From assembly GCA_934167445.1 (NCBI GenBank), contig CAKPKJ010000005.1, positions 3,071-67,070 on the forward strand: a DNA stretch of 64,000 bases, read 5' to 3'. The translations under genes were made by a program, and so were the position numbers. The notes under the pieces were generated by a model. The model did not search any database. It saw only the letters and a list, made by a program, of their open reading frames with translations, and was not told the DNA's origin. This document shows, piece by piece, positions 3,211-56,598 of this stretch; positions within the stretch are counted from its first letter, which is position 1; each line of letters starts with the position of its first letter. Source of the DNA: an uncultured Clostridia bacterium. GTDB taxonomy: Bacteria; Bacillota; Clostridia; TANB77; CAG-508.

Positions 3211-3600
3211 TTATTCTTTTATATCAGTGGTTTCAGCTTTTTTGCTTTTACTTTTTAACATTTTTGACCACTTATCTACATAGTATCTTCTAATTATAGC
3301 TAGATTTACAAACATTCTTCCAACAAAAACTACTATTGCGGCTAAATAAATATCCACATTTAATTTTTGTCCTAATATTGTTAGTAAAATTGCTAATATT
3401 GCATTTCCAAAAAAACCTGTTATAAATATTTTTAAGTCAAACTTTTTGTTTATAACTGATGTTATTCCTCCAAATACAGAATCTAAAGCTGCTACTACTG
3501 CAATTGCTAAATAACTTGAATATGTATATGAAATCATTGGAGCATTTATTCCTATTAAGGCTCCTACTATACATCCGATTAAAATTGCTATAAATACCAT
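3211..3600 (-). CDS. Small basic membrane protein (Sbp/YlxX-like, DUF1290)
   Basis: 129 aa with four hydrophobic segments and a basic C-terminal tail. Conserved position between the DUF881 genes and ftsA, as in the B. subtilis ylxW-ylxX(sbp)-ftsA arrangement. Confidence 0.7.
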   Translation of the reverse strand: MVFIAILIGCIVGALIGINAPMISYTYSSYLAIAVVAALDSVFGGITSVINKKFDLKIFITGFFGNAILAILLTILGQKLNVDIYLAAIVVFVGRMFVNLAIIRRYYVDKWSKMLKSKSKKAETTDIKE

Positions 3601-3611
3601 TTTTTTCTCTC

Positions 3612-4361
3612 CTATTCTATATACTTAGTTTTCAATTCTCCACTATATTTTAATATCTTTATGTTGTTTGGTTTATCTATTGTAATATCTTGTCCTGTCT
3701 TTTTTAAAGTATCAACTGCCCCACCATTTCCTATTAAAGAACTTTCCATATATGTAGGGTCTCCTATTGCTTTTATTGTATATGGGGCTAAAATTCTTTG
3801 CCCATTTATTTTGATAAAGCTCGAATAGTCTGAATTAATATCTACAATGTCGCTCATGTTTACAATTCTTTGATCATTTATTGATATTGCTTCTGCTCCT
3901 GCTAACTTTAAGGCATTAACAACTACTAATAAATTAGAAGCTGAAATTTTATTTGTGTCATCACTTGTTGAATCTTTTAGTGTTATTATTATTCCTTTTC
4001 CTTCAACATCAGTTTTACCTAAACTCATATTTACCTGGTCTAGTTCATTATTCATTACTGCACTTGTTTCTTCATTTGATTCTTTTGTTTTTTGGTATTC
4101 TTCTATCTTAGCCATTGTTTCTTGATATTGTTTTTCCGCTTCTTCATACTTTGTTTTCCAGTTTGCTAATTCAGTTTGAAGTTCTGACTCCCTCATATTT
4201 TCTATTGAAGTGATATCTGTTTCATTTACTATTTTAAATTGCATTGTCATTACCAATGTTAATGCAAAACACGCAATCATTATAGTAATTATCATTGCTA
4301 TTTTGCCCTTTTTAAAATTTTTTATTGTTTCTATTATATTCTTTTTAGGCTTATCTTTCAT
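3612..4361 (-). CDS. DUF881-family division/sporulation-associated protein (YlxW-like)
   Basis: N-terminal TM segment, a coiled-coil stretch, then the ...GAEAISINDQRIV...INGQRILAPYTIKAIGDP motif characteristic of DUF881. Paralogous to the next gene. Confidence 0.7.
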   Translation of the reverse strand: MKDKPKKNIIETIKNFKKGKIAMIITIMIACFALTLVMTMQFKIVNETDITSIENMRESELQTELANWKTKYEEAEKQYQETMAKIEEYQKTKESNEETSAVMNNELDQVNMSLGKTDVEGKGIIITLKDSTSDDTNKISASNLLVVVNALKLAGAEAISINDQRIVNMSDIVDINSDYSSFIKINGQRILAPYTIKAIGDPTYMESSLIGNGGAVDTLKKTGQDITIDKPNNIKILKYSGELKTKYIE

Positions 4362-6062: not shown

Positions 6063-7317
6063 TTAATTTATTAATTTTATAATATTTACGTTGATTTTTT
6101 TTAATTTATTATCAAAATTTTCATATCCTCTTAGAATATATTCTATGTTTTCTACTTTTGTTGTTCCTTTTGCTACAGTTGCAGCTAATACTAATGCCGC
6201 TCCACCTCGTAAATCGGTTGCTTTTACATTTGCTCCATATAGTTTTTTTACTCCTTTTATAACAGCTGTTCGGCTTTCTAGTGTTGCCTTTGCCCCCATT
6301 CTTACTAACTCTGGTATGAATTTGTACCTGTTTTCAAATATATTTTCAACTATTATTGAAGTTCCTTTCACTGTTGTTAAAACTGCTGCAAAAACAGATT
6401 GCATATCTGTTGGAAATCCTGGATATGGCATTGTTTTTATGTCTATAGGTCTTAATTTTTTTGGTGTCCATATTTCTATTTCATTTTTTTGAATATTAAA
6501 TTTACATCCCATCTCTTCTAATTTGTCTATAGCAGGAATTATATGTTCTGGGTTTACATTTTTTATTAAAATATTACTTCTGTTTATTGCTGCTAAACAT
6601 AAAAATGTACCGGCCTCTATTCTATCTGGCATAATATTGTAGCTTGCATCTCTTAATTGTTTTACACCTTCTATTTCTATATTACTTGAACCTGCACCTT
6701 TTATTTTTGCTCCCATTTTATTCAAAAAATTTTGTAAGTCTATTATTTCTGGTTCTCTTGCAGCATTGTTTATTTCTGTCTTGCCGTTCTGCTAAGCAAC
6801 TTGCAAGTATTGCATTCTCCGTTGCTCCAACACTTGGAAAATCTAAATCTATTTTTTCTCCGACTATTTTATCACAACTACACTCTATATTTCCATAGTT
6901 TTTTGTAATATTTATTCCTAATTTTTCAAATGCTTTTAAGTGTAATTCTATAGGTCTACTCCCTATTTCGCATCCTCCTGGATATGAAAATACTGCTTTT
7001 TTATTTCTTCCAAGTAATCCACCTGCCAAAATAACTGATGATCTCATTTGCCTCATTAACTTTTCTGGAATTTCATTTTTATTTATATTTGTATTATCTA
7101 TTATTACTTTATTATTTTTTTTTACTACTTTTGCTCCTAATTCTTCCAATATTTTAAACATTATTTTTGTGTCATGAATGTTAGGTACATTATACAATGT
7201 TGTTTTTCCTTTATGTAATATGGTTGCTGCTATTATAGGTAAAGATGCATTTTTAGAGCCTGAGATTTCTACTACACCTTCTATTCTGTTTCCTCCTTTT
7301 ATGATGTATTCTGACAT
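6063..7317 (-). pseudogene. murA: UDP-N-acetylglucosamine 1-carboxyvinyltransferase MurA, split by a +1 frameshift near 6785
   Basis: ORFs 6718-7317 (N-terminal part, MSEYIIKGGNRIEGVVEISGSKNASLP...) and 6063-6725 (C-terminal part) are two pieces of one MurA. Removing one base from minus-strand GAACGGCAAG (plus 6781-6790) restores ...[36 protein letters not shown]... This could be a true pseudogene or an assembly error. Confidence 0.85.
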
Positions 7318-17399: not shown

Positions 17400-18236
17400 T
17401 TATCTTTCAGCTTCGTCTTCTTCGATTTCTTTGTCATAAGTTATAAAACTTTTTTGATCATCATTTTCTTTTATCGCTTTTGTACTTTTTGCTATAATAT
17501 TTTTTTCTATTCTTTCCAAATCCATTGAACTTTCTTCTCTTCTTAATTTAGCCATTCTTGCTATTTCATTATGATTTCTTTCATATTGTCCTTCACGGTT
17601 ATAGCCTAACCTACTGTATCCAGCTTTATTATATCCATCTTTGTCATAACCTTCATAATCGTATTTTTTCCAGGTATATCTATTAATTCCATTCTGGTCA
17701 AACCCATGTTTATCATAACCTTTTTTATCATACTTAGTTCCGGTTTCTTTATTTATTGCGACTCTATTAAATCCATTTTTATCATATCCGTCCTTATTAT
17801 ATCCATCTACATCATAACCTTTTTCGTCATATTGTGTTTTAGTCTTGTAATGTTTTCCGCTACGGTCAAATCCATTAATATCATACCCTAATTTGTCATA
17901 CCCATATTTGTCATAAAAGTTAGCATCATATCCTTCTCTGTCATATCCTTGGCGGTTATATCCGTATTTATCATAGCCTTCTTCATCATATGCTGTACCG
18001 GTTTTTCTATTTAAACCATTTTCATCAAATCCATTTTTATTCCATTCTTCCTTATCAAATTCTGTTGGAGTACTTCCACATACATCCATACCGTTTACCT
18101 TATAAGCTCCAGCATCATAAATAGTTCCAGTAACACGGTTTATTCCTTTTTTATTAAAACCATTAATGTCATAACCATCTATATCATATCCATCTTGGTC
18201 AAATCCGTGTTCATCATATATTTTTTTCTTAGTCAT
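17400..18236 (-). CDS. Hypothetical protein built from G-[YF]-[DN]-x-x pentapeptide repeats with an acidic helical C-terminal tail
   Basis: Translation is almost entirely ...GYDIDGYDINGFNKKG...GYDKYGYNRQGYDREGYDANFYDKYGYDKLGYDINGFDRSG... No family recognised. Separated by 15 nt from the upstream gene, so likely co-transcribed. Confidence 0.6.
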   Translation of the reverse strand: MTKKKIYDEHGFDQDGYDIDGYDINGFNKKGINRVTGTIYDAGAYKVNGMDVCGSTPTEFDKEEWNKNGFDENGLNRKTGTAYDEEGYDKYGYNRQGYDREGYDANFYDKYGYDKLGYDINGFDRSGKHYKTKTQYDEKGYDVDGYNKDGYDKNGFNRVAINKETGTKYDKKGYDKHGFDQNGINRYTWKKYDYEGYDKDGYNKAGYSRLGYNREGQYERNHNEIARMAKLRREESSMDLERIEKNIIAKSTKAIKENDDQKSFITYDKEIEEDEAER

Positions 18237-41593: not shown

Positions 41594-42175
41594 TTAGTCA
41601 TCATTTAAATATTTTTTATGCTTATTTTTTTCTTCTGCCTCTTCTTCAGGCTCTGGCATCAACCATTCTATTCCATCTTCATTTAAATTTGTTTTTTCAG
41701 GTTTACTCTCTTTTTTTGTTTCTGTCTTTTCCTTTTTCATAGGTTCATCTTTCTTAGTTTCTACCTTTTCCTTTTTCATAGGTTCATCTTTCTTAGTTTT
41801 TGCCTTTTCCTTTTTCATAGGGGCATCTTTTTTAGTTTCTGTTTTTGTTTTATTTGTTTTTTCTTCTTTTTCTTCTTTTATTGATATGTCTAAATCATTT
41901 GTATTATCCACAATTGGTTCGTTTTCTGTTGATAATTTTTCTTCATTTGAGGTGTCTTCTACCATTTTGAATAAATCAACATATTGTGAATTTGATTTTT
42001 TTACTTCTGATTTTTTGTTGTTAATTTCTTTTTTTACTCTTTTTTGTGCTTCTTTTTTGTCTTTTTCAATTTTTCTTTCTCTTTTTCTTTCTCTTTTTCT
42101 TTCTGACATTCCTCCAAATATTAGTACTCCTGTTACTAGTATAATTAATATTAATAAAATAACTACAACTAACAT
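41594..42175 (-). CDS. Membrane-anchored K/E-rich repeat protein, hypothetical
   Basis: N-terminal TM segment (MLVVVILLILIILVTGVLIFGG), then a highly charged sequence containing three 13-aa repeats TKKD(E/A)PMKKEK.. Confidence 0.55.
   Translation of the reverse strand: MLVVVILLILIILVTGVLIFGGMSERKRERKRERKIEKDKKEAQKRVKKEINNKKSEVKKSNSQYVDLFKMVEDTSNEEKLSTENEPIVDNTNDLDISIKEEKEEKTNKTKTETKKDAPMKKEKAKTKKDEPMKKEKVETKKDEPMKKEKTETKKESKPEKTNLNEDGIEWLMPEPEEEAEEKNKHKKYLNDD
41726..41842. repeat. 39-bp tandem repeat, three copies, inside the K/E-rich gene
   Basis: CTTTTCCTTTTTCATAGG(T/G)(T/G)CATCTTT... begins at 41726, 41765 and 41804. Confidence 0.8.
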
Positions 42176-43646: not shown

Positions 43647-46600
43647 TTATAATATATATTTCTTAATTAGGAATATACCACCTGCTAATGTTACTAATAC
43701 AATTCCACCTAATGTAAAATATGTTCTAGCAGCACCTGTACTTACAGATAGCATAACTGGTGCATCATCTATATCATCTTCTCCTGGTTTTTGGTTGTCT
43801 GGAGTAGAATCTTTATCTGGTATATTGTAGTCATTATAATCTTTAGATATTTCTGCTGTATTTACTTTTAATCCCATATTGTCTGCATTGTTAATCCATG
43901 TTAGTATTACTTCTACATCTGCATATTCTCCTGGTTGTAGTAATGTATTTGCTAATGCATCTGTTGTAATTATATTATCACTTACTTGTGTCCATTGTGG
44001 ATTATCTTCAGCTAAGAATTTTAATCCTTCTGGAATATAATCTTTTACTTCTTTTGCATATCCTGCAATTTCACCTTCATTTACTACACGGATTGAGTAT
44101 CTAAATTTAACTGTTACATCATTTATATGTTTTCTATGTAAATCTACTTTTACAATTTCTTCTGGGTCATCATATGGTTGATGTCCTGTTTCTGTAATAG
44201 TTGTTCCATTTTTGTCTGTTACTATTGCTTGTGTTACCCATTTTCTTAAAGCTAAGTCGAATGTTTTTACTATTACTTTTTCAAAATCGTCATCATCTTG
44301 TTGCCCTGGTACATAATCTCCTTTTTCATCGCCTTTATATCCTGGCAAATCGCTATCTGCTGGTAATTTTACATTATTAGCTTGAGAATCTCTGTCTGTT
44401 ACTTTATTTTTATTTTCGTCTTTATATTCTGTTATATCTGCAATATTTGTAATGTTTTCGCTTGTTTTTGCATTTTCAGATACCTTACACATAATTGGAA
44501 CTTCTACATATGACAATACATATTTTCCACTCTCATCTTTTTCAGCTTTATTAATTAGGCTGTTTGATAAATATGTAGTTGTAACTGTTCTACCATCGTC
44601 TGAAATTGTCCAGCCATATTTTTTGTTGTAATCATTATCTACAAATTCTAAATATGGAGGTAAATGGTCTTTAATTTCTGAAGCATATCCATTGATATCA
44701 CCTTCATTATATACTCTTAACATATATACAACCATATCATTTTGTTTAACTATTATTGGTTCTTTTGTATGATTATATGTAGCTGTTGTAATTAATTTTC
44801 CATTATCGCCATTTGTATTTAATTTTGATGTATCTACAACTGGTGCTCTTTTATATGAACCATCTGCATTTTTTAAATATTCATTATCATCAATTTGCTC
44901 ATCTTCGCTTACTGCTGCTATGAATTTTCTTAGAGCTAAGTCAAATGATTGTAATTTTATGTTATCATAATCCTCATCGTCTTCATATTTTTTCCAAATA
45001 TTTGTATCTGAGTCTCTATCGTCTACCTCGTTTCCACCTTTATCTGTATCCTTAGAAATACAAGCTTCGTTTCTTATTATTGTTCCAACATTTTCTGATG
45101 TTACTCTAAATTTAACTGGAACTTCTTTATATGATAAATCTTTTTCTGTTTTTGTTCCATCATTACTTCCAAATGCTTTTATTAAATTTGCTCCTGGAGT
45201 TGTTTCATTGTCCTTTGATAAATATGATGTAGATATTTGTGTTATTTTGTCCTTGTTGTCATTATATTTAAAATTACTCCATAAATATTTTTGGTTAAAT
45301 TCAATTGCTTCTTTTTCGTCGGCTGATAAAGTTGTATCTGCTTTTAAGTCTTCTCCTTCTTTTTCTGACCATAAAAATTCTAGTCCGTCTGGAATGTCTT
45401 CTGTTAGTTCAGAAGCATATCCATCTATTGTTCCTTCGTTGTATACTCTAAATGTATATGTAACTATGTCACCTTTTTTTACCCCGACTGGTTCTTTGTT
45501 TAGTGTATAATCAGCTGTTGTTATTAAATTACCATCAGCACCTATTGTATTTAATTTACTAGCATCTATTTTTTCAATTCTTTCAGGTACATTTTGATTA
45601 TTTACAGCTGTGATTCTCTTGATTAGTTTTAAGTCAAATGATTCTGGCATTAAAATTAACTTTTCAAAGTCATCATCATCTTGTTGTCCTTTATAATAAT
45701 AGTCTTTATCTGTTAAGTCCTCTTTATTTCCATTTCCTCTATAATTTGACATATTGTCTTTGTTTGCATCTGGTTTTGTACTTGGTTCAGAGTCTCTATC
45801 AGCACCTTTTTGATTAGTTATTGTTACTCCTGTTTCTCCATTTATTTCTTCTGAAATATATGCTATATTTGTTAAAACTGTATTTTTTACTGCATCAGGT
45901 GTAGCTTCTACTGTACATTCAATTTCTATTGTTTCTGATGATAAGTTGCCTGTTGTATATCCAGATAAATCTGTTGTATTTCCAACTTTTCTTGTTAAAT
46001 TTAATGTGTTTGATTCTTCATTATAAGCATTTGCTTCAAAATTACCACTAACTACTTTACTAAACTTTAATCCTGTTGGTAATTGATCTACTACTTTAGT
46101 AGCTCTTCCTGCTGAATTTCCTTCGTTATATATTGTCATCTTATATGTTACAACATCACCTGTTTTTACTAATACAGGATCTTTTTTGTGTTTATAAGTT
46201 GCTGTTGTTGCTGTTGTTAATGCAGATTCATCAACATTTGGTACTCTTGAATTAGCTCCTGTTAATTCTTCTCCGTTTATTTTTGTTATGTATTTTCTTA
46301 ATGCTAAATCAAATGTTTTATTACTTAATGTTATCTCTTCAGATTTTGGTTCTTCTGTTGGAATCATAACAGGTTGTTCTTGATTATTTTTTGTTGAAGC
46401 CCATAATTTAAGTGATGTATTATTATAATTTATTCTTATTGAAACAGAAAGATTATCTGAATTAGCTTGTGGTACAGAAATATAAAAGTCTTGTCCAACT
46501 AAATCTTTTACAGTTGTGCCTTGAACAACTTCTGATTTATTATTATTTAATAATTTATAATCATTTATAACTGTATCACCATTTTTTACAGTAATGTCAA

Positions 46601-50749: not shown

Positions 50750-51952
50750 TTATTCGATTATATCAGCTACAACTCCTGAACCAACTGTTCTACCACCTTC
50801 ACGAATAGCAAATCTTAATCCTTTTTCTATAGCGATAGGTGTAATTAATTCGATTGTCATAGATACGTTATCACCTGGCATAACCATTTCTGTTCCAGCA
50901 GGTAGGTCAATAACACCTGTAACGTCTGTTGTTCTGAAATAGAATTGTGGTCTATATCCATTGAAGAATGGTGTATGACGTCCACCTTCTTCTTTAGTTA
51001 ATACGTAAACTTCTGAAGTGAATTTTGTGTGTGGATGGATTGTTCCTGGTTTACAAAGAACTTGTCCTCTTTCAATTTCTTTTCTATCAATACCACGTAA
51101 TAGAACACCGATGTTGTCACCAGCTTCTGCTTGGTCTAATAGTTTTCTGAACATTTCAACACCTGTTACAACAGTTTTCTTTCTTTCTGTTGTTAAACCA
51201 ATGATTTCAACTTCGTCTTGTAATTTAACTTCTCCTCTTTCTACTCTACCTGTAGCAACTGTACCACGACCTGTGATTGTGAATACGTCTTCAACTGGCA
51301 TTAAGAATGGTTGATCGATTGGTCTTTCTGGTGTTGGGATGTAGCTGTCTACTGCATCCATTAATTCTTTAATTGGTTGGTAAACAGGATCATTAGGATC
51401 TGTTGATGTAGATTCTAGAACTTTTAATGAAGATCCTTTGATAATTGGAATTTCGTCTCCTGGGAAACCATATTCTGTTAATAGATCTCTAACTTCCATT
51501 TCTACTAATTCTAATAATTCTGGATCATCTACCATATCACATTTGTTTAAATATACAACAATATATTTAACACCAACTTGTCTAGCAAGTAATATATGCT
51601 CTCTTGTTTGAGGCATTGGTCCATCAGCTGCAGAAACAACTAAGATAGCACCATCCATTTGAGCAGCACCTGTGATCATGTTTTTAACATAGTCAGCGTG
51701 ACCTGGACAGTCAACGTGTGCATAGTGTCTGTTATCTGTTTCATATTCTACGTGAGCTGTATTAATTGTAATACCTCTAGCTTTTTCTTCTGGAGCACCA
51801 TCAATTTGATCATATGCTTCATATTGAGCTTTTCCTAATAATGATAAGTATTTTGTAATAGCAGCTGTTGTTGTTGTTTTACCGTGGTCTACGTGACCGA
51901 TTGTACCGATATTAACGTGTGGCTTTGTTCTTTCAAATTTTGCTTTTGCCAT
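50750..51952 (-). CDS. tuf: Elongation factor Tu
   Basis: [14 protein letters not shown] and NKCD motifs. 400 aa. Confidence 0.98.
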
Positions 51953-52133: not shown

Positions 52134-54212
52134 TTAGTCTTTTTTTCTTGAAGCAACAATTGCTTCTAATACTGATTTTGGAACTTCATCATAATGAGAT
52201 GGTTCCATTGAATATGTTCCTCTACCTTGTGTTCTAGAACGAAGTTCAGTTGCATAACCAAACATTTCTGATAATGGTATAAATGAGTGAATTTCTTGTA
52301 CTCCATCAACATTATCCATTCCTTCTAATCTACCACGTCTAGAGTTTACATCACCAATAACATCTCCCATGTATTCTTCTGGAACTGTTATTTCAACTTT
52401 CATAATTGGTTCTAATATAACTGCTCCACCTTGTTTCATACCTTCTTTGAAGGCCATAGCTGCAGCTATTTTGAATGCCATTTCTGAAGAGTCAACTTCA
52501 TGATATGAACCATCAACTAATGAAACTTTGAAGTCTGTAACTGGGTAACCAGCTAAGATACCAGTTTCAGCAGCTTCTCTCATACCTTGTTCAATAGGTT
52601 TAATATACTCTTTTGGAACAGCTCCTCCAACAATTTTGCTTTCGAATTCTATTCCTTTACCTGGTTCTAATGGTTCCATTTCAAACCAAACGTCACCATA
52701 TTGTCCTTTACCACCAGATTGACGAATAAATTTACCTTGAACTCTTACACTCTTTCTAATTGTTTCTTTGTAAGCAACTTGTGGTTTACCTACATTACAT
52801 TCAACTTTAAATTCTCTTTTTAAACGGTCAACTATAATATCTAAGTGTAATTCACCCATACCAGCTATAATTGTTTGACCAGTTTCATGGTTTGTATGAA
52901 CTTTAAATGTTGGATCTTCCTCTGCTAATTTTCCTAATGCAATACCCATTTTTTCTTGAGCTACTTTATCTTTTGGCTCAATAGCAATATCTATAACTGG
53001 GTCTGGGAATTCCATTTGTTCTAATATAACTGGATGATTTTCATCACATAAAGTATCTCCTGTAGTAACATTTTTTATACCAACAGCTGCTGCTATATCT
53101 CCAGCATATACTTTTTCGATATCTTGTCTGTGATTTGAATGCATTTGAAGAATTCTTCCGATTCTTTCTTTTTTATCTTTATTAGAGTTTAATACTGTAG
53201 AACCTGCTTCTAGTGTTCCTGAGTATACTCTAAAGAAACATAATTTTCCAACAAATGGGTCTGTTGCGATTTTGAATGCTAAAGCTGCAAATGGTTCTTT
53301 GTCAGAAGTTTTAACTTCTACTTCGTTTCCATCTGGATCTGTACCTTTAATATGAGGTATATCTATTGGTGATGGCATATAATCAACTATAGCATCTAAT
53401 AATTCTTGAACACCTTTATTTTTATATGAAGAACCACATGTTACAGGTACTATTGTATTAGCGATAGTTCCTTTACGTAATCCTTTTTTGATTTCTTCTT
53501 CTGTTAGCTCTTCACCTTCAAGGTATTTCATCATTAAATCTTCATCTTGATCAGCAACAGCTTCAAGCATAGTTGCTCTCCATTTTTCAGCATCTTCTTT
53601 CATATCGTCTGGAATTTCTTTTTCAACAATATGTTCTCCTAATTTATCATCTTGGATAAATGCTTTCATTTTAATTAAGTCAACTATTCCTTGGAAATTG
53701 TCTTCAGCTCCAACTGGTAATTGAATTGGAACAGCATTTGCGTGTAATCTGTTCTTTAATTGATCAACACAAAGCATAAAGTTAGCTCCTGTGATATCCA
53801 TTTTATTTACATATACCATTCTTGGAACATTGTATTTATCAGCTTGTCTCCAAACTGTTTCTGTTTGTGGTTGAACTCCACCTCTTGCGGCTAAAACTGT
53901 AACAGAACCATCTAAAACTCTTAGAGATCTTTGAACTTCTACTGTAAAGTCAACGTGACCTGGTGTGTCTATAATATTTATTCTATTATTTTTCCAGAAA
54001 CATGTTGTAGCAGCAGATGTAATTGTTATACCTCTTTCTTGTTCTTGTTCCATCCAGTCCATTGTTGCAGCACCTTCGTGAACTTCTCCTATTTTATGAG
54101 TTTTACCTGTGTAAAATAGAATTCTTTCAGTTGTAGTTGTTTTACCTGCATCTATATGGGCCATAATTCCTATATTTCTAGTTCTTTCTAGTGGGTATTC
54201 TCTACCTGCCAT
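52134..54212 (-). CDS. fusA: Elongation factor G
   Basis: [17 protein letters not shown] and NKMD motifs. 692 aa. Confidence 0.98.
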
Positions 54213-54280
54213 TTAAAAATCCCCCTTTCTAGGTTTTTTATAAAATTTAAATAATATTTAATTTATTATGTGTAAATTTT

Positions 54281-54393
54281 GATTAAAATTTATAAGATGT
54301 GCGTTTTATGAAATTATTGCAAGCTGATGGCGTACGTTGGTACGTCGAAGTTTGCAATAGTTGAATAAAACACGCATATTATTGATTTTAATC
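54281..54393. repeat. Extended imperfect hairpin repeat, copy 1 (rpsG-fusA spacer); possible structured RNA
   Basis: Nested stems around the apex CGTAC-GTTG-GTACG (54331-54344). Middle stem ATTATTGCAAGCT / AGTTTGCAATAGT, outer stem GCGTTTTAT / ATAAAAC(A)CGC, and a further GATTAAAAT / ATTTTAATC. The 26-nt core GGCGTACGTTGGTACGTCGAAGTTTG (54329-54354) is identical to copy 2. Confidence 0.6.
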
Positions 54394-54399
54394 GAATTT

Positions 54400-54870
54400 T
54401 TACCATTTGTAATGAGCAAAAGCCTTATTAGCTTCAGCCATTCTATGTGTATCTTCTTTCTTCTTAAATGCTCCACCGTTTCCAGCTACAGCGTCTACGA
54501 TTTCACCAGCTAATTTTTCAGCCATTGTTTTTTCATGTCTGTTTCTAGCATATGTTACTAACCATCTTAACCCTAAAGTTTGTCTTCTTTCAGGTCTGAT
54601 TTCTAATGGAACTTGGTATGTAGCTCCACCAACTCTTCTAGCTTTAACTTCTAGAACTGGCATGATATTTTCTAAAGCTGCTTCAAAAATTTCTAAAGGA
54701 TCTTTTCCTTCTTTTTCTTTAATAATGTCAAATGCATCATAAACTATTTTTTGAGCAACTGATTTTTTACCATCTAGCATTATGTTGTTTACTAATTTTG
54801 TAACAACTTTACTGTTATACATTGGATCTGGTAATACATCTCTTTTTGCTATATATCCTTTTCTTGGCAC
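54400..54870 (-). CDS. rpsG: 30S ribosomal protein S7
   Basis: [16 protein letters not shown]... 156 aa. Confidence 0.98.
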
Positions 54871-55070
54871 TATTCTTCCCTCCTTAAAATTTTTTCTGAT
54901 GTTTTATTCGGAAAACATCTCGGTACTCTGAAAAGCTTATGCTTTTCCGTATAGTGCTAATAAATCTATTCTAAATTTAAGTACCTTAAGTTTAGTAAGA
55001 ATTACAAGCACTAAAATTGCTAAAACCTAAAAATGAAATTAAAGTTAATTCGCTAATTTTAAAAATGAAA

Positions 55071-55177
55071 TTAATTAGGTATATTGTGCATTTTACGAAT
55101 TTATTACAAGTTGAAGGCGTACGTTGGTACGTCGAAGTTTGTGATAAAAGAGTAAAATGTGCAAGATGCCTGATTTA
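55071..55177. repeat. Extended imperfect hairpin repeat, copy 2 (rpsL-rpsG spacer)
   Basis: Same architecture as copy 1. Apex identical (core at 55116-55141). Middle stem TTTATTACAAGTT / AGTTTGTGATAAA with three G-T wobbles. Outer stem TGCATTTTAC / GTAAAATG(T)GCA with a bulge at the same position as in copy 1. Confidence 0.6.
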
Positions 55178-55187
55178 GTTCATTTTT

Positions 55188-55601
55188 TTATTTTTTAGGT
55201 TTCTTAGCTCCATATTTAGAACGAGCTTGCATTCTGTCCTTAACACCTGCTGTATCTAATGTTCCTCTGATGATATGATATCTAACACCTGGAAGGTCTT
55301 TTACCCTACCACCTCTGATTAATACAACACTATGTTCTTGTAAATTATGTCCAATACCTGGAATGTAAGATATAACTTCGTAACCGTTTGAAAGTCTAAC
55401 TCTGGCAACTTTTCTTAAAGCTGAGTTTGGTTTTTTAGGTGTTACTGTTTTTACAACTGTACATACGCCTCTTTTTTGTGGTGCTCTATTGTTTGTTAAT
55501 TTTTTGTTTTTTGAGTTGTAACCATGGCGAAGTGCTGGAGCTGTAACTTTACTAACTTTATCTTTTCTTCCTTTTCTTACTAATTGGTTAATTGTTGGCA
55601 C
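55188..55601 (-). CDS. rpsL: 30S ribosomal protein S12
   Basis: [11 protein letters not shown]... and ...[13 protein letters not shown] start with an AGGAGGTGA SD 6 nt upstream. Confidence 0.98.
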
Positions 55602-55744
55602 TTAAATTCACCTCCTATTTTTATTTTGTAATTTCTAAGCATAAAATCTCTGTGCTTACAAATTCTATTTTGTTACGGAATTGCATATTACACGCAATTT
55701 ACTATAACAACTTATATTCTACCACGGAATAACTTATAAGTCAA

Positions 55745-55809: not shown

Positions 55810-56598
55810 TTATCTTTCCTCATTGTCGTCTTTTTCATAATTGGGGTATTCTTGTTCTTTTTCGTTTTTATTACCTATTGAACTTTTTTCTAGGCCATCA
55901 ACTTTAAATTTTTCTTTATATTTTTGTTTTGCCTCTTCTTTATCATAATATCCAATTTCAGTTTTTTCCTCAATATTTTTATGATTTTTTCTCGCTCTCT
56001 TAAGTCTCAATTTAAATTTTAAAAGGCTTACTCCAAACCTGCTAATTGATAATCTTGGGAATATTCTTGATAATCTTGGAAACTCTTTTTCAAAAGTGTT
56101 TGGTCTTGGCAAATATATTTTTTCTGCTAGCTCTAGTGTTTCTTCGCTCATATCCTTTTCCAATATTATTTTTTCTTCTCCAACTATCATTTCTGGTTCC
56201 TCTTCTTCAACTGTCATTTCTGTTTTTTCTTCTCCAGCTGTCATTTCTGGTTTTTCTTTTCCAGCTACCATTTCTGTTTTTTCTTCTTCAGCTACCATTT
56301 CTGGTTTTTCTTCTCCAGCTGTCGTTTCTGGTTTTTCTTTTTCGGCTACTATTTCTGGTTTTTCTTCTTCAGCTGTCATTTCTGGTTTTTCTTCATTCAT
56401 TTCGGAAATAGAACTGTTTAAGTTCTGTTCTTGATATTTTTGTTTTTCTACATATTCTTTAAAATGACATCCTTCACGCTTTCTATTGTTTCTTACAAAA
56501 CCTCTGCTTTTTTTATAGTGTTTCGCCTTGTATGTTTCTGGCTTTTTGCCTAATATCTCTCTTAAATTCTTTATACTTCTTCTTTTATTATTTTCCAT
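55810..56598 (-). CDS. Hypothetical acidic protein with about eight 9-aa (E/K)EKPEM(T/V)A(E/G) repeats
   Basis: Intact ORF. The central region is ...EEKPEMTAEEEKPEIVAEKEKPETTAGEEKPEMVAEEEKTEMVAGKEKPEMTAGEEKTEMTVEEEEPEMIVGEEK... Confidence 0.55.
   Translation of the reverse strand: MENNKRRSIKNLREILGKKPETYKAKHYKKSRGFVRNNRKREGCHFKEYVEKQKYQEQNLNSSISEMNEEKPEMTAEEEKPEIVAEKEKPETTAGEEKPEMVAEEEKTEMVAGKEKPEMTAGEEKTEMTVEEEEPEMIVGEEKIILEKDMSEETLELAEKIYLPRPNTFEKEFPRLSRIFPRLSISRFGVSLLKFKLRLKRARKNHKNIEEKTEIGYYDKEEAKQKYKEKFKVDGLEKSSIGNKNEKEQEYPNYEKDDNEER
56172..56396. repeat. 27-bp tandem repeat array (about 8 copies) inside 55810-56598
   Basis: Repeating unit ...CATTTCTGGTTTTTCTTCTCCAGCTGT... with minor variants. 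The boundaries are approximate. Confidence 0.7.

Follow-up and report, generated by a model that had tools for sequence, protein, structure and literature searches.

A strand-asymmetric hairpin repeat, possibly of MITE-like origin, dispersed through core operons of low-GC gut Clostridia

Miniature inverted-repeat transposable elements (MITEs) such as RUP, the repeat unit of pneumococcus, are mobilised by IS630-family transposases. Bacterial small repeats have been reviewed (PMC3184786). Repetitive extragenic palindrome (REP) units are palindromes of 20–40 nt that carry an unpaired GTAG or CGTC tag and occur as inverted pairs (PMC3733652), and compensatory maintenance of the hairpin has been reported for REPINs (PMC3733652, PMC3116915, PMC6006769). 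Frpo/ssi single-stranded DNA (ssDNA) promoters of conjugative plasmids, whose features have also been described (PMC11541004, PMC9849209), offer another comparison. Here we analyse two hairpins in the str operon of an uncultured Clostridia bacterium, within a 64-kb stretch of contig CAKPKJ010000005.1 (the window; ~28% G+C). They are not a control element specific to the str operon; they belong to a dispersed repeat that occurs in many core operons of low-GC gut Clostridia. We propose, with moderate confidence, that these hairpins are copies of a new MITE-like family of non-coding, non-autonomous mobile repeats. Our literature search for a described equivalent returned only general REP, MITE and Frpo papers.

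The original prediction, made from the letters of the window, placed two extended hairpins directly after the rpsL and rpsG stop codons. Folding of both strands confirmed a single extended hairpin at each site, and showed that the hairpins are longer than first described, since their helices extend to the limits given in Table 1 once the flanks are included. At the coordinates first described, the plus strand reaches −52.0 kcal/mol (z −11.5) for copy 1 and −47.2 kcal/mol (z −10.1) for copy 2, compared to −32.2 and −20.2 kcal/mol for the minus (mRNA) strand, whose fold is still significant (z −5.4 to −8.0); with DNA folding parameters the strand asymmetry persists, but is smaller. The 26-nt apex core, GGCGTACGTTGGTACGTCGAAGTTTG, is identical in both copies as claimed, occurring exactly twice in the window, on the plus strand, with no occurrence expected in shuffled sequences even at 3 mismatches. 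The stems diverge between the copies yet retain their pairing, again as claimed, but the shared single-nucleotide bulge did not hold up: copy 1 has a 1x1 C/A opposition and copy 2 has tandem U-G/G-U pairs at that place.

We then collected 33 stretches from species-representative genomes that carry an exact 22-nt core, with flanks of up to ~15 kb (L numbers below denote individual loci or contigs). All hosts of this exact 22-mer are uncultured Clostridia from animal and human guts. A covariance model trained on the 33 copies found ~53 copies in the genome loci and 29 in low-GC metagenome contigs, diverged ones included, giving a family of ~80 copies in uncultured low-GC Clostridia that occupies at least 20 different spacers. 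Within the window the model found just two copies, copy 1 at 54267–54412 (114.9 bits) and copy 2 at 55054–55199 (126 bits), the latter with orthologues at the same site in L022, L026, L008, L013, L033 and L039. Each 8-kb locus holds one to four copies, all on the same strand within any locus. Pfam searches of the flanking open reading frames (ORFs) place copies in translation operons (rpsL/rpsG, rpsG/fusA, fusA/tuf, S13/S11, L6/L18, L18/S5, nusG/L11 and L23/L2) and in other settings (grpE/dnaK, pyrH/frr, NifU-like/GGGtGRT, upstream of murG and beside an AI-2E transporter gene), and a divergent tRNA-Trp spacer harbours one pair of copies. The suggestion of a str-operon-specific element therefore fails across many operons and species, and the scatter of copies through unrelated intergenic regions, which had been named beforehand as evidence against it, is what we observed. 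In L025 (7177–7572) a T-box leader and its gene are separated by one copy, and in a GC-richer relative, L065 (1880–2367), the hairpin falls between a cobalamin riboswitch and the cbi genes; because these antisense copies sit between a regulator and its regulated gene, the element is tolerated within regulated 5′ untranslated regions.

Sites are gained or lost between species. The rpsG/fusA site is empty in L007 and L028, and the rpsL/rpsG site in L028, L029 and L006, while both are filled in other species. Arrays also occur, with three copies in one L029 spacer and two each in L026 and L002, and in L026 a different copy is wedged between the stop codon and the copy that abuts the stop directly in L008. 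Two copies in L033 (1050–1197 in rpsG/fusA and 1946–2092 in rpsL/rpsG) share an identical inner module of ~85 nt, bounded by GTGCA / TGTGCA, and have different, site-specific outer stems, a mosaic that points to recombination among the copies or to an inner unit that is itself mobile. Between different sites, low-GC copies share at most 87% identity, and orthologous copies are 97–99% identical compared to 52–74% for the adjacent spacer. No family member was found in plasmid, phage and viral collections. A plasmid origin was rejected for lack of plasmid matches, and a phage origin was rejected because the three 'phage' matches (GenBank 'Bacteriophage sp.') are bacterial chromosomal fragments with EutH, CorA, GatB and amidase genes; one viral-contig match fell inside a coding region and formed no hairpin.

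Selection acts on the fold, and on the strand antisense to the operon, as the original prediction had proposed from the two copies. RNAalifold gave 48 pairs, 34 of them with compensatory double changes, and 95.3% of pairing cells were paired compared to 75.3% in shuffles and 35–46% when partners were slid; all five covariation measures exceeded each of 500 shuffles. The middle stem is hypervariable yet paired, whereas the apex stem is invariant with a fixed G-U, and the apex consensus reads yUGAAG-GCGUAC-loop-GUACGuC-GAAG. The observation that non-Watson-Crick pairs are G-T on the plus strand extends to all pairs of the 33 members (192 G-T on the folding strand versus 10 A-C), and the ratio is still about 44:10 when only positions with wobble as the minority state are counted. 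Purine-purine oppositions outnumber pyrimidine-pyrimidine ones 40:24 on the folding strand. We rejected mutational bias as the source of the wobble asymmetry because the element is G-rich on a locally C-rich strand, against the local skew, and deamination on the exposed (coding) strand would give the opposite pattern. Elements are 131–139 nt long (~135–145 nt for the proposed foldback element), with arms that pair end to end in a continuous stem of ~65 bp, and their ends read TAAAAT...ATTTTA (end sequence TAAAATTGATT...).

The apex internal loop is best read as tandem G-A pairs with one bulged base; K-turn, hammerhead and sarcin-ricin loops were rejected because their registers misfit when compared by eye against consensus patterns. 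Stem variation consists of paired changes and is not codon-like, and a small ORF was likewise rejected, one copy having a possible 16-aa ORF that stops after 7 codons in copy 1 of the window. The original prediction had recognised no known ribosomal-protein leader here, and in agreement no Rfam family matches the element. At E-values up to 10, the window matched only plant microRNA-precursor models (generic long hairpins), and at the gathering score the whole 64 kb had no Rfam match (no tRNA, riboswitch or ribosomal-protein leader) despite the str operon; the GC-rich relatives described below matched nothing at gathering or permissive E-values.

Every low-GC copy is antisense to its flanking genes (~80/80, with no sense copy). 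Among the 30 genome-locus copies with an adjacent upstream ORF, 27 have a stop-to-core distance of 46–53 nt, and the stop codon lies 11–21 nt into the model in 23/29 metagenome copies, so that the TAA falls at or inside the outermost helix. The hairpin base thus abuts or includes the upstream TAA in most low-GC copies, and in some copies, such as that beside the NifU-like gene, the last two codons also lie within the helix. The distance to the downstream start codon varies, and at several sites just ~20–60 nt, ribosome-binding site included, separates the hairpin base from it. This spacing argues against the dedicated antisense RNA gene that had been considered, as do the promoter searches: promoter-like sites are not enriched (5 found versus 6.0 expected) and the copies have no conserved flank that could hold an antisense promoter. 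The window's subfamily has no −35/−10 pair in the 3′ arm. It does have a recurrent promoter-like match in the 5′ arm (−10-like TATATT/TAAGAT) that reads towards the apex, which we rejected as a start point because the outer helices, then upstream of the start, covary strongly. An intrinsic (Rho-independent) terminator in either direction was rejected because the stem has no directly following U tract; mean lengths of the longest T run were 4.0 (folding strand) and 3.4 (mRNA strand), and no terminator-like site was found on either strand of 54100–55700.

Searching with a degenerate apex pattern, for which we estimate ~0.5 chance matches, also recovered contigs of 48–65% G+C, in which the motif caps long hairpins with unrelated stems; taken together, the bacteria with such hairpins span 44–65% GC. 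These hairpins keep the strand asymmetry (e.g. −101.5 versus −72.2 and −96.1 versus −71.1 kcal/mol) and have no U tract. In L064 the hairpin is antisense to groEL and has TAA among its first bases, and the L073-group hairpin, likewise antisense, lies 3 nt from the TAA of an M18 aminopeptidase gene. TA occurs at both ends of the elements in L064, L065 and the 44–53% GC lineages L035, L044, L067, L074 and L076, as well as in L072, and can be assessed at the intact end only of the partial L075 copy. Removing the element and one TA from L064 restores the groEL stop, ...GAC TAC TAG, within CTAG. Copies of the 44–53% GC subfamily are 94–98% identical at three sites, one of which lies inside an IS630-family transposase ORF, and their terminal 30 bases agree at ~24 positions with one end of an IS630-family element in L075. 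That contig (MT835881.1) carries at 3249–3374 a partial hairpin element that splits an IS630-family transposase gene, separating its helix-turn-helix from its DDE part, and the right end of its insertion sequence (~3850–3878) resembles the hairpin element ends. Orientation varies within this subfamily: the L035 and L044 copies are antisense, those of L067 and L076 are sense, and the L074 copy lies between convergent genes. These data point to transposon-like behaviour of the GC-richer relatives.

In several of the 44–53% GC copies the 3′ hairpin base reads TTGCAT-N16-TGCTATAAT (L074 22395–22428; L076 605–640; L067 10330–10345), by its sequence a putative outward-pointing, near-consensus extended −10 promoter. 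The promoter-like base in L076 precedes an amidase gene of the same strand by 170 nt. In L046 (~6590–6720) an L073-type GC-rich hairpin stops just past the apex and continues as unrelated sequence, a break that may represent a rearrangement or an insertion into the hairpin.

Table 1. Coordinates of the two hairpin repeat copies and neighbouring genes in the window.
Feature	Position	Strand	Remarks
Hairpin repeat copy 1, full extent	54268–54406	+	rpsG/fusA spacer; −60.6 kcal/mol on + versus −37.1 on −
Copy 1 apex module	54329–54354	+	CGUAC-GUUG-GUACG, with GAAG/GAAG purine oppositions on its flanks; exact 26-mer
Hairpin repeat copy 2, full extent	55061–55187	+	rpsL/rpsG spacer; −55.3 kcal/mol on + versus −26.9 on −
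Copy 2 apex module	55116–55141	+	exact 26-mer
rpsG stop codon TAA	54400–54402	−	complement within copy 1 basal helix; stop-to-core 49 nt
rpsL stop codon TAA	55188–55190	−	adjoins last paired base of copy 2, 3′ on +; stop-to-core 50 nt
rpsL	55188–55601	−	ORF
rpsG	54400–54870	−	ORF
fusA	52134–54212	−	
tuf	50750–51952	−	

The intercistronic gaps had also been described as long, and the 317-nt rpsL-rpsG gap is, but ~150 nt of it belongs to another conserved block, which precedes rpsG on the mRNA strand. This block (window 54880–55015, minus strand) reads AGTGCTTGT...AAGGTACTTAAATTTAGAATAGAT...AGCACTATACGG followed by two small covarying hairpins, was found in 8/8 related loci, those free of the hairpin repeat included, has no Rfam match, and is a candidate S7 leader. 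Immediately upstream of rpsL, an ORF of 262 aa (55810–56598, minus strand) contains at 56133–56402 at least seven tandem copies of a 27-nt unit (9 codons), and neither this ORF nor the longer one beyond it has a recorded Pfam family. Further internal repeats, including a 39-nt tandem repeat and a repeat family in a 15-nt register, lie at 41709–41864 and 17617–18220, and four units spaced at ~684 nt resemble tandem paralogous genes (44225–46333). An ENA metagenome assembly contains a contig identical to the window's.

A MITE-like foldback repeat accommodates much of this evidence. The element is non-coding, shorter than 300 bp and bounded by terminal inverted repeats, as are MITEs. Its two long arms would act as the inverted terminal repeats, and a DDE transposase of the IS630/Tc1-mariner type would move it in trans, inserting it at TA. 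TAA and TAG stop codons would then provide the target TA and so be natural landing sites, most clearly in GC-rich hosts, and since the TA would outlive the insertion, a new copy could enter next to the stop codon, ahead of an older one, so that arrays would grow on the stop-codon side. Insertion itself would be unoriented, with a filter against strong hairpins in essential mRNAs leaving only antisense copies inside operons: in essential, highly expressed operons, only the orientation that gives the mRNA the weak hairpin would survive. In the surviving orientation the mRNA strand has A-C and pyrimidine-pyrimidine mismatches every 7–8 bp and roughly half the stability. Because transposition alone leaves the retention of the strong fold and the apex unaccounted for, we suggest that these may be kept as a module that some factor reads single-stranded, as antisense RNA or as template-strand DNA.

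Several observations weigh against a MITE-like origin. Neither the window nor any of the low-GC loci analysed contains a parent insertion sequence or a transposase, and the identity ceiling between low-GC copies at different sites gives no sign of recent movement. TA at both ends is common in the window's subfamily, but is expected by chance at 28% GC, and the L073 group has no TA flanks at the hairpin base. Orthologous copies are better conserved than their flanks, which looks like purifying selection and not like a neutral parasite. DDE cut-and-paste transposases require neither a hairpin nor a particular strand, so that the covariation of the whole stem, the wobble asymmetry, and the stronger conservation of the apex than of the ends are left unexplained. 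Siting within 0–5 nt of the stop is also unexplained by TA insertion because TA is everywhere in the genome, and uniform antisense orientation, even where a terminator would be harmless, exceeds what simple tolerance predicts.

A functional reading stays alive because whole-stem pairing on one strand, the apex, the stop spacing and the missing sense copies are otherwise unexplained. Under such a reading, to which we assign a minority share of likelihood, the copies would be domesticated, orientation-locked and stop-anchored devices that guard core-gene boundaries, with a conserved cellular factor reading the apex and the strand-specific fold single-stranded. They might be one-way barriers to antisense transcription or to polymerase conflicts, and would be a kind of element not described before.

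The best-surviving alternative to the MITE-like family is a host-selected RNA element of the antisense strand, possibly a domesticated mobile repeat, that works as a one-way insulator protecting the upstream gene; we consider this unlikely, though worth weighing. Stray antisense polymerases would transcribe the ~60-bp hairpin, which would halt them or mark the transcript for RNase III, while the A-C mismatches would weaken the mRNA copy and leave the mRNA transparent. A fold selected on the antisense strand only is consistent with this mechanism, as are the strict antisense orientation and the placement at the 3′ boundary of the upstream ORF. Copies are also enriched in highly expressed operons, in a genome of 28% GC that is rich in promoter-like sequences, and orthologous copies are more conserved than the neighbouring spacer. 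Because the sites offer neither room nor signal for a dedicated promoter, any plus-strand RNA must arise by read-in transcription, which also fits an insulator. However, the elements have no terminator-like signal, with T runs averaging ~4 and nearly equal in both orientations, and the GC-rich relatives lack any U tract. Insulation needs neither an invariant 26-nt apex nor a 0–5 nt stop spacing, and the 44–53% GC relatives also occur in sense orientation (L067, L076) and between convergent genes (L074).

A sense-mRNA element tied to translation termination is improbable in our judgement. The terminating ribosome would open the weaker mRNA hairpin, which might set the stability, processing or translational coupling of the neighbouring cistrons; REP sequences near stop codons influence such properties in E. 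coli. Stop codons are 'seen' by ribosomes only, and most copies, as well as the GC-rich groEL (L064) and M18 peptidase (L073) cases, have a hairpin base that adjoins or includes the stop. The element always lies within a transcription unit, and the mRNA strand folds significantly. However, G-U pairs are all but absent from that strand and A-C oppositions make up ~12%, opposite to the pattern that selection on it would produce, and the internal loops of that strand turn pyrimidine-pyrimidine. Some copies, moreover, have no stop nearby, being placed behind a T-box or a cobalamin riboswitch or within a divergent spacer.

Even less probable is a template-strand ssDNA signal, similar to Frpo/ssi or to the single-strand origins of rolling-circle plasmids, that drives transcription of the downstream gene or priming. 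In its favour, the hairpin belongs to the template strand and precedes the next ORF, DNA hairpins tolerate G-T and G-A oppositions, folding with DNA parameters leaves the asymmetry in place, and the promoter-like motif in the 3′ arm of the 44–53% GC relatives reads towards the hairpin base. However, the window's subfamily lacks such a 3′-arm motif and its recurrent 5′-arm match points to the apex, the elements occupy chromosomal core operons and were not found in plasmid or phage collections, and tandem U-G/G-U motifs are typical of RNA, not DNA. For genes co-oriented with replication, judged here from the computed skew, the template strand is also not the one exposed at the fork.

A str-operon-specific regulator, such as an S7 or S12 binding site or autoregulatory ribosomal-protein leader, has next to no likelihood: both window copies lie in the str operon and E. 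coli S7 does regulate via the rpsL-rpsG spacer, but copies are distributed over many operons (beside grpE/dnaK, pyrH/frr, NifU-like, murG, transporter and groEL genes), the fold is on the wrong strand for such a role, the two sites are empty in related genomes, and the block upstream of rpsG is a better leader candidate.

These results show that a dispersed transposon-like repeat can display dense compensatory changes and a one-sided wobble bias, the textbook marks of a functional RNA, which calls for caution in RNA-motif discovery in metagenome-assembled genomes. They also show that an undescribed repeat family has colonised the most conserved operons of widespread gut Clostridia with three traits absent from ordinary MITEs and REPs, namely absolute antisense orientation, stop-codon anchoring, and an apex conserved across hosts of 27%–65% GC. 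If these traits are functional, they would offer a way to study how very AT-rich genomes protect essential operons against antisense transcription; if they stem from the mechanics of insertion, they would indicate a transposition system that uses stop codons as landing sites.

As in Frpo/ssi promoters, a long template-strand hairpin lies upstream of the ORF to be served, but the window's subfamily has no −35/−10 reading towards the base, and its sites are chromosomal core operons where those of Frpo/ssi are plasmid leading regions. Integron attC sites similarly conserve structure above sequence, fold from the template (bottom) strand, start at or overlap the stop of the upstream ORF, and are uniformly oriented relative to genes, and in our family too the template strand folds directly after an ORF stop. 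However, our elements have no RYYYAAC/GTTRRRY end boxes, ending instead in TAAAAT...ATTTTA, the conserved part is the apex and not the base as in attC, and the flanking genes (rpsL, rpsG, fusA, tuf and others of the core set) keep a conserved order and are not cassettes. Integrons are not known from this bacterial group.

REP, BIME and REPIN sequences are likewise extragenic palindromes found mainly downstream of ORFs and between co-directional genes, form arrays, and are long-lived and vertically inherited. Unlike REPs and REPINs, the family has one continuous stem of ~65 bp whose apex is conserved; it carries no tag at its ends, and CGTC is present only inside the paired apex. No RAYT gene was seen within the 64-kb window and locus flanks of up to ~15 kb, and the folding strand is opposite to the lagging-strand-template strand that Y1 transposases use. 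ERIC/IRU and Neisseria Correia elements belong to proteobacteria, show no sequence relationship to our family, are found at high copy number in either orientation, and are not anchored to stop codons. In common with our family, they are imperfect palindromes of ~100–150 bp in transcribed spacers, co-transcribed with operons, whose RNA fold depends on orientation, and some carry outward promoters, as the 44–53% GC relatives have TGCTATAAT at the hairpin base.

RUP and other IS630-related MITEs have no sequence similarity to the family. They also differ in that the low-GC subfamily is strictly antisense and stop-codon-anchored, pairs with compensation along the whole stem, has a 19:1 wobble asymmetry, and conserves the interior apex, not the ends, across distant hosts. 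What the family shares with these MITEs is a non-coding length of ~100–150 nt folded as one long hairpin, multiple copies in the intergenic DNA of Firmicutes and, in most relatives with the same apex, TA at both ends, with ends that resemble an IS630-family element in the 44–53% GC subfamily.

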